Positions 20,201 through 23,200 of a stretch of DNA of 64,000 bases are shown here, one piece after another (position 1 is the first letter of the stretch; the number at the start of each line of letters is the position of its first letter). The notes under the pieces were generated by a model. It saw only the letters and a program-made list of their open reading frames with translations, was not told the origin of the DNA and did no database searches. Location of the stretch: NCBI GenBank assembly GCA_951406725.2, contig OX597832.1, forward strand, positions 63,240,001-63,304,000, in the 5' to 3' direction. Made by a program: the position numbers and the translations under genes. This DNA comes from Octopus vulgaris (Eukaryota).

Positions 20201-23200
20201 TATGTATATATAAGTATGTATATATATGTACATACATATATATATATCTATACATATGTATATATATATATATATATATATATATATATATATAATGTAC
20301 TACATATATTTTGTATGTATATAAGAAATATAGTTTTGTAACAGTTGAATGGAACAGCACAAATCCTGGTAGAAAAGTGTGCAAGAAAATTTCAACATGG
20401 TGAATGCGATTGAGTTGTACTGAAAATGTTGCTGGTGAGTGTTGTAGCACTGTTTGTCTGTTTGGTGTAATTAATGTCAATCAATAGAAATTAATGTCAA
20501 TCAATGGAGATTAATGTGACACAGCATGATTGAAGTGGTTAGTGTGATTTAGTGTGAATCATCAATGCAATTTAATGATTTTAATAGGGTCAGTTTTGTT
20601 TATATGGTTACTGTATTCTGCTAGACCAAAGTACAAAAGTCCACTGAATATAATAATCTTTGGTGTGACCAATACTGTTAAGAGTCCTTGGAATGGCAGG
20701 GCACAGTCAGTATTGCTGAGTGGGATCAACATGACTATCATGTGATTGTTGTGATGGATGTTGTATGGTCAGTGGTAAGTAGCTCATCCTCAGGATTGTG
20801 AGGTCAGTGTTAGAATGTGCTGGTCAATGTGACTGAATATAATACAAGTGTTGGATCTTCTTTGAGATATTAGTGGAAAGGTCAGTTTGAATAAGAGAAT
20901 GGTCAAAATTGATAAGTAATGTGATTAGTTTAATCAATGAGGTTTATTAAAGATCAAATTAAGAGGTCATCTTTGATTTTCATTCTGGATAAAATGAAAT
21001 ACCAGTTATGTACTGGGGTCAATATAATTGACCATACTCTCATCAAAATGTGTGATTTTTTTTTTCTTTCTCTGTTGAGGTTCATATAGGTAGGTTGCAA
21101 TTTGGAACAAGCTTTTGGTGGTCTGTTGCTAAGTTCCATTGGCAAGGGCTGGCCAAGATGAGCAAAGGTTACAGTCACTGTAGTAAATAGTTACAGAAAA
21201 GCAAGAGTTTCCTCTTGAATTGCTTTCAGACTCAATCAGCGAATCATTTGATGCCCAACCAATGAGCTTATGCCTACAAGAACATAGTTACCATTGGTTA
21301 CAGCATGGTGGTTTGATTGAGGTTTTGGTAATTAACATATTGTGGTTTATTGGGGACAACAATCCGGGGTCATGTGTTGTCAGTATATAATTCAATGGAA
21401 AGAAACATAGTCAAAACGATAAGTTTTGGGTAACTTTTTGGTAAATTGTTATTTTGACTATGATGGACTATTTCTGTTGAATGTAATAAGAACGACCAAT
21501 ATAGTTTCAGTATTTACATTATTTACATTTGATAGATATTTATCCTCATCTTGTTTGTTGTTAACACAACATTTCAGCTGATATACTCTCCATCCTTCAT
21601 CAGGTGTCTTGGGGAAATTTCGAACCCAGGTTCTCATTCTTAAGGTACTTTTTGATGATGATGATGTTGTTGTTGTTGTTGTTGTTGTTGTTGTTGTTGT
21701 TGTTGTTGTTGTTGTTGTTGTTGTTGTTGTTGTTGTTGTTGTTGTTGTTGTTGTTGTTGTTGTTGTTGTTGTTGTTCAGGTCACTGCCTGGAATCGAACT
21801 TGGAATCTTGGGGCTAGTAGCCCACTCTCTAACCCCAAGATTCAGAGTTCAATTCCAGGCAGTGACCTGAATAATAATTATATAGAAAAATACCTTAGGA
21901 ATAAGAACCCAGATTCGAAATTTCCCCAAGACATCTGATGAAGGCTGGAGGGTATATCAGCCGAAATGTTGTGTTAATAGCAAACATGATGAGGACAAAT
22001 ATCCGTCAAATGTAAATAGTGTAAATAATTCCTCATCTCTTAAATATAGAACTGGAGTTTCAGTATTATTGGAATAAATAGGTTTGATGTGTTCAGTTCT
22101 ACAGATTTAACTGACCACTGGAACTGGTTGGTATAAGTTATATTATTATGATAGACAGAACCAGTTCTGGCCAGTCTGACTTGAGAATTGTGATCAAGAC
22201 AAGGCATAATCAATGTGGTCAACTTCAACTGAAGTGCTTTCAGATCAACCCTGACATCTGGAAAATGCAAGAACAAAGCTGTCCTGCCTGGCATAGCTGC
22301 ACCAACAGAGGTACTAGCAGAACAGGATTGCAGGAACAAAACGTGAGCTGTGCAAGTCCAGAGCTAACTCCTTGCCTTCATTCCTGCTCTCATAAATGAG
22401 AATACTAAAAATGAACCTGACTGCTCTCAAAAATTAAGTAAAAAAAAAAACAGGAAAAATAATCCAGAATCTTTGTCTGGTACTGGATCGATTCCAAAAT
22501 CTAATCAGTTTGTTCCAGTCACAAGGCCAAACATCTCTGAAAGTTTCATGCAAATCCATTCACTGGTTCTTGAGGTATCTTGTCCACAGATAAACAAATG
22601 TGATTGAAAACAATATCTCGGCCTTCACTAAAGCAGAGGTAATAATAAACATTAAACACCATTTTGGCATTCTTGAGATTTGGTAGCTGAATGTCTCTTC
22701 TTTAACAAAACCCAGAAAATCAAATTGAAATGATAGACTAATCTATTCTAAAATTCACCTGAGATTTGAAACCTGTGCATTGAACTTAGTCATGAAGATT
22801 ATGCTTCAGGCAAGTTTGAGAGCAATTTGTATTCCACTAGGAATATGGCTGACCTCAAAAACACTGCTCTATTGGAACCAATAATTACTGGTTTTGTAAT
22901 TGAGTAAGCTTCTCTCAAAAACGTTTTTGCCAATTTCTGAAGGAAAACATTTTTGAATTTTTTTTTTCATCAATTTTTAATTATTTTGATAAAAATGCCT
23001 AAGACTGCCTCCGTTTCTATGATACTTCCTGTTTTAAAATGATTTTAATTAAAACCTATCAAAATTTGTTAATTCATGTCCCAAACACCAACTTAATAAT
23101 GACAGTTATTTTGCTAAATTCATTGAAACAAAAGCAGTTTTTTTTTCTACACAAATATGGTAAGGAAACGGTTAAGATACATATTGCACTGACAATTACA

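Follow-up and report, generated by a model that had tools for sequence, protein, structure and literature searches.

At positions 21503-22067 of a 64,000-nucleotide stretch of Octopus vulgaris DNA (contig OX597832.1, positions 63,240,001 to 63,304,000, forward strand; hereafter the window) lies a short palindromic unit, and a second insertion of the same design is found at 30017-30817. An earlier note had described each arm of these units as a tRNA-like head, a simple-repeat linker and a tail with a hammerhead ribozyme, and had taken them for a non-autonomous, self-cleaving short interspersed nuclear element (SINE) or retrozyme, relying on RNA polymerase III (Pol III) for transcription and mobilised by a Penelope-like element (PLE). 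In the computational analysis reported here the unit emerges, with high confidence, as an ordinary twin insertion of a PLE. We also think it probable that it consists of head-to-head, 5'-truncated PLE pseudo-long terminal repeats (pseudo-LTRs), the first part of which is an A/B-box module derived from a tRNA, likely the place where the RNA has its 5' end. Throughout, +1 stands for the base opposite tRNA position 1 in the alignment, and T1-T169 are tail positions.

The palindrome and its 12-bp target-site duplication were recovered as described: an exact direct repeat brackets two inverted arms of 142 nt with 88% identity (21511-21652 and 21886-22027), with an inner inverted pair at 21769-21817 and 21829-21877 (Table 1). 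Where the orientation changes, 6 nt (21829-21834) belong to both heads, a microhomology, and the right arm alone reaches the 3' end at 22054, as the note had it. The second insertion has a different inversion point and a duplication of its own, matching at 11 of 12 positions. With regard to the contents of the arms the description held in part: the window copies do carry a tRNA-derived head, with box B in both arms of the first unit, and a hammerhead, but box A (+8..+18) is intact in none of the four arms, whose heads begin at +17, +35, +60 and +47 and all end at +75, and the hammerhead is mutated in all four, the best one being altered in its helix III palindrome. The changes are of the CpG type, with GAAATGTT or GAAACATT in place of GAAACGTT. 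A descriptor of the minimal type I hammerhead finds a single site in the window (21930-21975) and none in 50 dinucleotide shuffles, and folding returns stems I and II of this site as drawn. An Rfam scan gave neither a tRNA nor a hammerhead match at the window element, and ARAGORN found no tRNA in the window; the hairpin microRNA matches reported by Rfam at the element are artefacts of the palindrome.

A search of the 2.8-Gb genome with the tail gave 3745 first-look candidates, and copies of the family lie 4-8% from their consensus. A reading frame of the Penelope endonuclease type (GIY-YIG-type) precedes the head in 2 of the first 30 loci; when the search was made with upstream-frame DNA, the stop of the open reading frame (ORF) was seen to lead directly into the head in 19 of 20 GIY-YIG loci, the twentieth being left unscored for its orientation. 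Longer copies (L081, L256) contain the reverse transcriptase (RT) domain PF00078. The consensus, built from 33 copy segments, holds a single 838-aa ORF with YVDD, whose ATG lies inside the tail (T16; the corresponding codon of the window copy, 21901-21903, is ATA), and which continues across the hammerhead to a stop codon lying 30 nt short of tRNA +1. Tandem copies show the tail leading straight into the ORF, as in 15 of the 15 loci chosen for this junction. The layout is thus ORF stop, 30 nt, tRNA-like head, A-rich/(AAY)n linker, and tail with ORF start and hammerhead. Because the ORF stop runs into the head and the ORF starts inside the tail, head, (AAY)n and tail together are the pseudo-LTR of an autonomous PLE, and the earlier note was right to expect such an element with the same tail.

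The protein of the element shows 43-69% identity to RT/PF26215 proteins, and the own-genome loci for one related protein, P0014, all belong to this same PLE family (30 of 30). The endonuclease was tentatively assigned to the GIY-YIG type from its motif pattern and its by-eye collinearity with the Penelope/Poseidon rows in the supplement of PMC8557442; here and below, what is said of published sources covers excerpts of them. Pfam and NCBIfam gave no GIY-YIG domain match in the element protein and no intact full-length copy was found among the loci examined, two points that speak against the reading as an autonomous PLE. A search of the PDB returned weak RT matches only, a CxxC (Zn-finger) linker between RT and endonuclease is not visible in the consensus when compared with the excerpted alignments of that supplement, and a metagenome scan found no relative.

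A sister subfamily (L284-L303; L082:8522-8760, minus strand), with 2166 first-look candidates, has the same tRNA-like head and a plain A-rich linker with no microsatellite, and its 5' ends lie at the same place in 8 of 20 copies (by eye). A 27-nt insertion after its tail ATG keeps the reading frame. Near-identical long PLE copies at L196-L198 (G000:C1, 7.9-9.1 Mb) were apparently carried by segmental duplication.

Among 77 distinct head-to-head pairs, the terminal extension is present on one arm in 70, on both in 3 and on neither in 4; the short arm ends at T130-150, 20-40 nt before T169, in 74 pairs, and 60 are flanked by a repeat of 6-17 nt, the short ones of which may be due to chance. Derived variants common to both arms number 26, against 8.9 ± 2.9 expected from 2000 permutations, an excess which indicates that the two arms come from one source or were homogenised. 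Published PLE insertions comprise an inverted 5'-truncated copy and a 30-40-nt tail (PMC8557442), head-to-head pseudo-LTRs with palindromic junctions, 8-10-bp duplications and the ORF start within the pseudo-LTR (PMC3846280), and hammerheads that occur in pairs on opposite strands, separated by 100-700 bp and attributed to PLEs that have been truncated (PMC4209133). The pairs with a one-arm extension have this published form and their parent codes for RT, in agreement with the proposed PLE mobilisation with inverted integration.

For the Anolis Poseidon element it was observed in vitro that both strands are nicked and extended and that RT begins at two internal sites in the 5' part of the ORF (+111-118), ORF sequence being needed to +172 (PMC11167929). 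Its hammerhead overlaps the ORF start and cleavage is not needed for insertion; the main RT start lies 85-92 nt past the cut, as computed from the same source, and in the octopus element T169 is 84 nt past the predicted cut. By analogy with that element, the RT/GIY-YIG protein would nick both DNA strands, and two cDNAs would begin at two internal sites of the element's own RNA, T169 and T130-150, both running toward the RNA 5' end. Short stretches of self-complementarity, or else a brief folding back of the cDNA, would allow the two to be joined, giving a palindrome and a 7-15-bp duplication, and if the RNA starts some 6 nt upstream of the tRNA-like head, SINE-like solo pseudo-LTRs would be the product. 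The many twin insertions provide in vivo support for two-site, two-strand RT initiation, previously seen in vitro for one lizard element.

The hammerhead core announced by the earlier note is intact in the family consensus, with core boxes, helices I and II and a palindromic minimal helix III all present, and its 41-nt consensus sequence has 1117 exact matches in the genome, against none for the reversed control; the Rfam hammerhead model, suggested as a check, gave no match at the element. Hammerhead cleavage sets neither end of the inserted copies: 4 of 75 tail-internal 5' ends fall at T85-89, the 75 including a few repeated matches and internal deletions. The ribozyme would cleave only as a dimer or helped by protein. 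Read in frame, the core (consensus T50-T90) yields a short peptide, which can also be made out at the N-terminus of P0014, a related protein from another source; the ribozyme doubles as coding sequence.

When the consensus head was compared end to end with genomic tRNA genes, the best partner was a tRNA-Arg (44 of 73 positions identical, z 7.8; the sample held 30 genes of only five amino-acid types, the others at z 2-6). Boxes A and B are found in both subfamilies by inspection against the textbook consensus, and the tRNA derivation of the head, claimed from the window copies, is upheld at the level of the family. ARAGORN at default settings found nothing in the head, and at a 70% threshold it gave a non-canonical fold that was equalled by 5 of 300 shuffles.

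Copies of the family end sharply at this module. Exact genome counts are 3735 at +2..+23, 848 at -29..-10 and 686 at -127..-108, a loss of 4.7% of copies per nt across the head start vs 0.22% further upstream. In loci chosen on the tail only, 68 of 96 head-bearing arms reach +8, and these stop within -17..+8 in 58 cases, at -39..-18 in 2 and beyond -40 in 8; arms with broken heads were filtered out, so the 8 long arms are a lower bound, and the stops at -14 to -17 are fold-back artefacts save one. Most arms that get as far as box A end 0-7 nt upstream of tRNA +1, and in loci selected on the head 25 of 30 stop at -7..+2. We regard it as probable that the RNA begins near -6, at the tRNA-derived module. 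In a tRNA-type promoter, by textbook spacing, box A lies about 13 nt downstream of the start. A TATAA motif overlaps the stop codon at -34..-30, 24-28 nt before the inferred start; short copies are without it, and in AT-rich DNA it may be there by chance.

The boundary could also have another origin, in which the head is a passenger, an old tRNA retrocopy behind the stop codon of the same PLE. The RNA would then come from Pol II read-through or from a Pol II promoter, and the cDNAs would stop at -7..+1 by fold-back and self-priming at a small GC palindrome. Among 101 arms, 24 fold back at exactly this small palindrome (spanning -7..+5), 13 are long and 64 have other junctions. Rotifer PLEs (Adineta) have palindromes of 18 and 38 bp at their pseudo-LTR 5' ends, for which self-priming was inferred, and since the excerpts of that paper make no mention of tRNA (PMC3846280), a hairpin alone may set the boundary, a point against the module as start of the RNA; snap-back following full-length cDNA synthesis has been reported for R2 proteins (PMC11371274). 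The passenger origin would also agree with the failure to see a discrete RNA by RNA sequencing (RNA-seq), and the roughly 11 subfamily changes do avoid the invariant box positions, but by our estimate chance would do the same about once in eight. However, many of the 64 other junctions end at -7..+3 with no fold-back, on the flank or at an arbitrary point of the partner arm; stem II of the hammerhead, an equally stable hairpin (-6.7 vs -5.4 kcal/mol), causes no pile-up, with 5 of 75 ends at T55-61; and the boundary sits where a tRNA-type promoter would start. Taking both sides into consideration, we judge the passenger origin unlikely, though it deserves to be kept in view, and retain the tRNA-derived module as the probable start of the RNA.

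That the A and B boxes are a putative internal Pol III promoter is a suggestion that we make tentatively, and with more reserve still the fuller version of it, in which a tRNA-Arg retrocopy was captured as internal promoter and the autonomous PLE is transcribed end to end by Pol III, its 2.6-kb sense strand purged of runs of four T (T4 runs); the latter seems to us doubtful. T4 runs are absent from the 2604-nt sense strand of the pile-up consensus, for which shuffles average 4.5 (P 0.008). In the alignment consensus a single run appears in the tail, at a coverage of 4, which is an alignment artefact, a consensus of 200 tail arms having none there. For the same protein 4.8 T4 runs are expected (P 0.036 counting the one run), and phenylalanine is encoded by TTT 6 times and by TTC 14 times, vs 86 and 75 for the other two-fold codons (p 0.059). 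Other open frames of the DNA analysed, 44 in number, contain 133 T4 runs vs 119 expected.

Several observations weigh against the Pol III proposal. With codon usage kept, the expected mean falls to 3.1 T4 runs (P 0.13 counting the artefact), and G4 runs are likewise absent (0 vs 2.6 expected); the absence of T4 is a weak, post hoc signal from one family. The consensus head has no cloverleaf fold (z +1.3) and no tRNA match in Rfam. The Drosophila Penelope has an internal promoter of the initiator/downstream promoter element (Inr/DPE) type (PMC2377424). Finally, the mapping of RNA ends put forward in the earlier note disclosed no discrete ends: in three raw RNA-seq runs, of which about 6% each was used and which bear the same species label, not necessarily this genome, there was no pile-up of starts or ends. 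A search among sequencing runs listed no RNA run carrying the element. At locus L213 there were 6970-9321 reads, equal in both mate directions, and 78-79% of reads run on into unlike sequence. Coverage that is equal in direction, runs on and has no pile-up points to passenger transcription and is silent on Pol III. No circle-closing joint was seen among the joints listed, the library type being ill suited to circles.

tRNA-derived SINEs, such as the schistosome Sm-alpha and the octopus tRNA-Arg SINEs, have a tRNA-like 5' head with A and B boxes and a fixed 5' start, and a 3' part in common with an autonomous partner; unlike in these, the head here lies inside the autonomous element and the short copies do not form a separate lineage. 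The independent Pol III-driven SINE/retrozyme family of the earlier note, with its own master copies mobilised in trans by the PLE, appears improbable to us. It would account for the short head-to-tail copies, which outnumber the long ones by about 3 to 1, for the clean target duplications and starts at -7..+1 of some of them (L007, L020), for the lack of a T4 terminator in head or tail, and for small tandem deletion derivatives with a hammerhead per unit (L215, L216, L218). However, between 63 short and 20 long arms there is no position with a different majority base, the four sites at uncorrected p<0.05 leaving it unchanged, and both classes show similar divergence (4-8%); with no fixed difference from the long copies, the short ones look like solo pseudo-LTRs of the parent. 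In addition, the head was never seen with another tail, the PLE tail standing behind it in 28 of 30 head-selected loci and the other two being cut; the tandem dimer in cis that retrozymes use is not available to hammerheads placed head-to-head; and short copies end at the RT start, whereas Anolis Poseidon requires ORF sequence to +172, well past its own start sites (PMC11167929).

Rather than a SINE lineage, the best view of the short copies is that they are solo pseudo-LTRs, produced in cis on the RNA of the parent. Ending at the RT start site, they would lack the downstream ORF sequence bound by the protein, and so would not be templates but dead ends. The short tandem deletion derivatives (L218:1500-2070, minus strand, also L215 and L216; and L205-L207) have units of tail and about 120 nt of ORF start, one hammerhead each; the ORF piece is linked back either to the tail, through a junction that three loci share, or to head position +14. 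They keep ORF sequence past the RT start and look like better candidates for non-autonomous retrozymes than the short copies. As to a DNA transposon or miniature inverted-repeat transposable element (MITE) with long terminal inverted repeats, the long inverted arms and target duplication are what it would leave, but it is refuted, for practical purposes entirely, by the contiguous RT/GIY-YIG-type parent, the arms being the end of an RT-encoding ORF, and by unequal arms, variable inversion points, and termini and duplication lengths (6-17 nt) that are not fixed.

The element shares with Penelope/Poseidon PLEs (Poseidon of Anolis, Pen2/Pen2a of Adineta, Penelope of D. virilis) a single ORF of about 840 aa with RT, followed here by a putative C-terminal endonuclease, a pseudo-LTR with ORF start and hammerhead, a head-to-head inverted 5'-truncated copy, an optional one-arm tail of about 30 nt, a duplication of about 8-12 bp, a palindrome at the pseudo-LTR 5' end and an RT start about 85 nt past the hammerhead cut (PMC11167929, PMC3846280, PMC2377424). 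It differs from them in that its pseudo-LTR opens with a tRNA-Arg-like A/B-box module and an A-rich linker and, by our comparison, in that its sense strand is without T4 runs; promoters of the TATA/Inr/DPE type are described for those elements, and the word tRNA is absent from the excerpts of PMC3846280. Metazoan PLE hammerheads have, as here, an extra A after the first core box, a long helix II, a 5-bp helix I and a palindromic minimal helix III; the excerpts of that source name no cephalopod and describe no tRNA head (PMC4209133).

Non-autonomous retrozymes have already been tied to PLEs (PMC7229834; bioRxiv 10.64898/2026.07.22.740005), and non-LTR retrozymes resemble the window unit in their type I hammerhead, 200-400-nt unit and origin from a PLE pseudo-LTR; they form head-to-tail tandem arrays with a hammerhead per unit, whereas the window unit is head-to-head. 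PLEs are also known in octopuses (PMC8557442 supplement; PMC13282606, the excerpted main text of which makes no mention of a hammerhead). The Octopus Naiad and Hydra PLEs include cephalopod elements with tandem or inverted insertions as here, but Naiads, unlike the present PLE, have an N-terminal endonuclease and no canonical hammerhead (PMC8557442). The Naiad_Ovul consensus has many sense-strand runs of four or more T, and, being far more T-rich, is not a matched control (PMC8557442 supplement).

The palindrome, the hammerhead and the tail are textbook PLE features, and what is new is the tRNA-derived start of the pseudo-LTR: a promoter-like tRNA module that both subfamilies have fixed at that place and whose 5' boundary is sharp across thousands of copies. 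A PLE with a tRNA head, or one driven by Pol III, did not turn up in the literature search, the scope of which did not extend to Repbase, Dfam and most subscription papers, and the family may be catalogued. If Pol III does drive the PLE, a retrotransposon that codes for protein would be using a Pol III promoter, which would raise the question of how translation proceeds on an RNA that has no cap and carries a hammerhead within its ORF, and would show how SINE-like elements can arise from PLEs. With transcription by Pol III from end to end, internal RT initiation would mass-produce SINE-like solo ends, a route to the birth of PLE-dependent SINEs. Such PLE copies will be mis-annotated as SINEs or MITEs.

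Table 1. Features of the two PLE insertions in the window
Positions	Strand	Feature	Remarks
21503..21514	.	Target-site duplication, left copy	Direct repeat, 100%
21515..21657	-	Inverted arm, pseudo-LTR tail, ~T-4 to T138-142, without the ~30-nt terminal extension	92% to consensus
21563..21608	-	Minimal hammerhead of the left arm, degenerate	Altered in stem II and helix III
21658..21776	-	Expanded (AAC)n/(ATC)n linker joining head and tail	
21777..21834	-	tRNA-derived head, +17 to +75	Box B kept, box A cut off
21829..21869	+	tRNA-derived head, +35 to +75	Of the boxes, B alone
21870..21885	+	Short (AAT)n linker	
21886..22054	+	Complete tail of the pseudo-LTR, T1-T169	Forms the PLE ORF's 5' end
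21930..21975	+	Minimal type I hammerhead	Cut predicted after 21970; mutations in the helix III palindrome
22028..22054	+	PLE 'tail' extension, right arm only	Form as in PMC8557442, PMC11167929
22056..22067	.	Target-site duplication, right copy	Direct repeat
30004..30015	.	Target-site duplication, left copy, second insertion	11/12 with right copy
30017..30192	-	Full tail arm, second insertion, T169 to T-6	Hammerhead core broken
30220..30265	.	Inversion centre, second insertion	Head +60..+75 (minus) and +47..+75 (plus)
30303..30672	+	Unrelated high-copy SINE	Later insertion into the right-arm (AAT)n linker/microsatellite
30677..30815	+	Short tail arm, second insertion	End near T132
30818..30829	.	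Target-site duplication, right copy, second insertion	

The SINE family nested in the second insertion is very abundant, with more than 20 further matches in the window, and it both hosts and interrupts PLE insertions (loci L002, L003 and L136). A weak Rfam tRNA match at 42370-42437 (plus strand, 30.5 bits) is probably the head of another SINE. On the minus strand, at about 7000-10000, the window holds open-frame fragments of an RTE-like long interspersed nuclear element (LINE) with endonuclease- and RT-like peptides.

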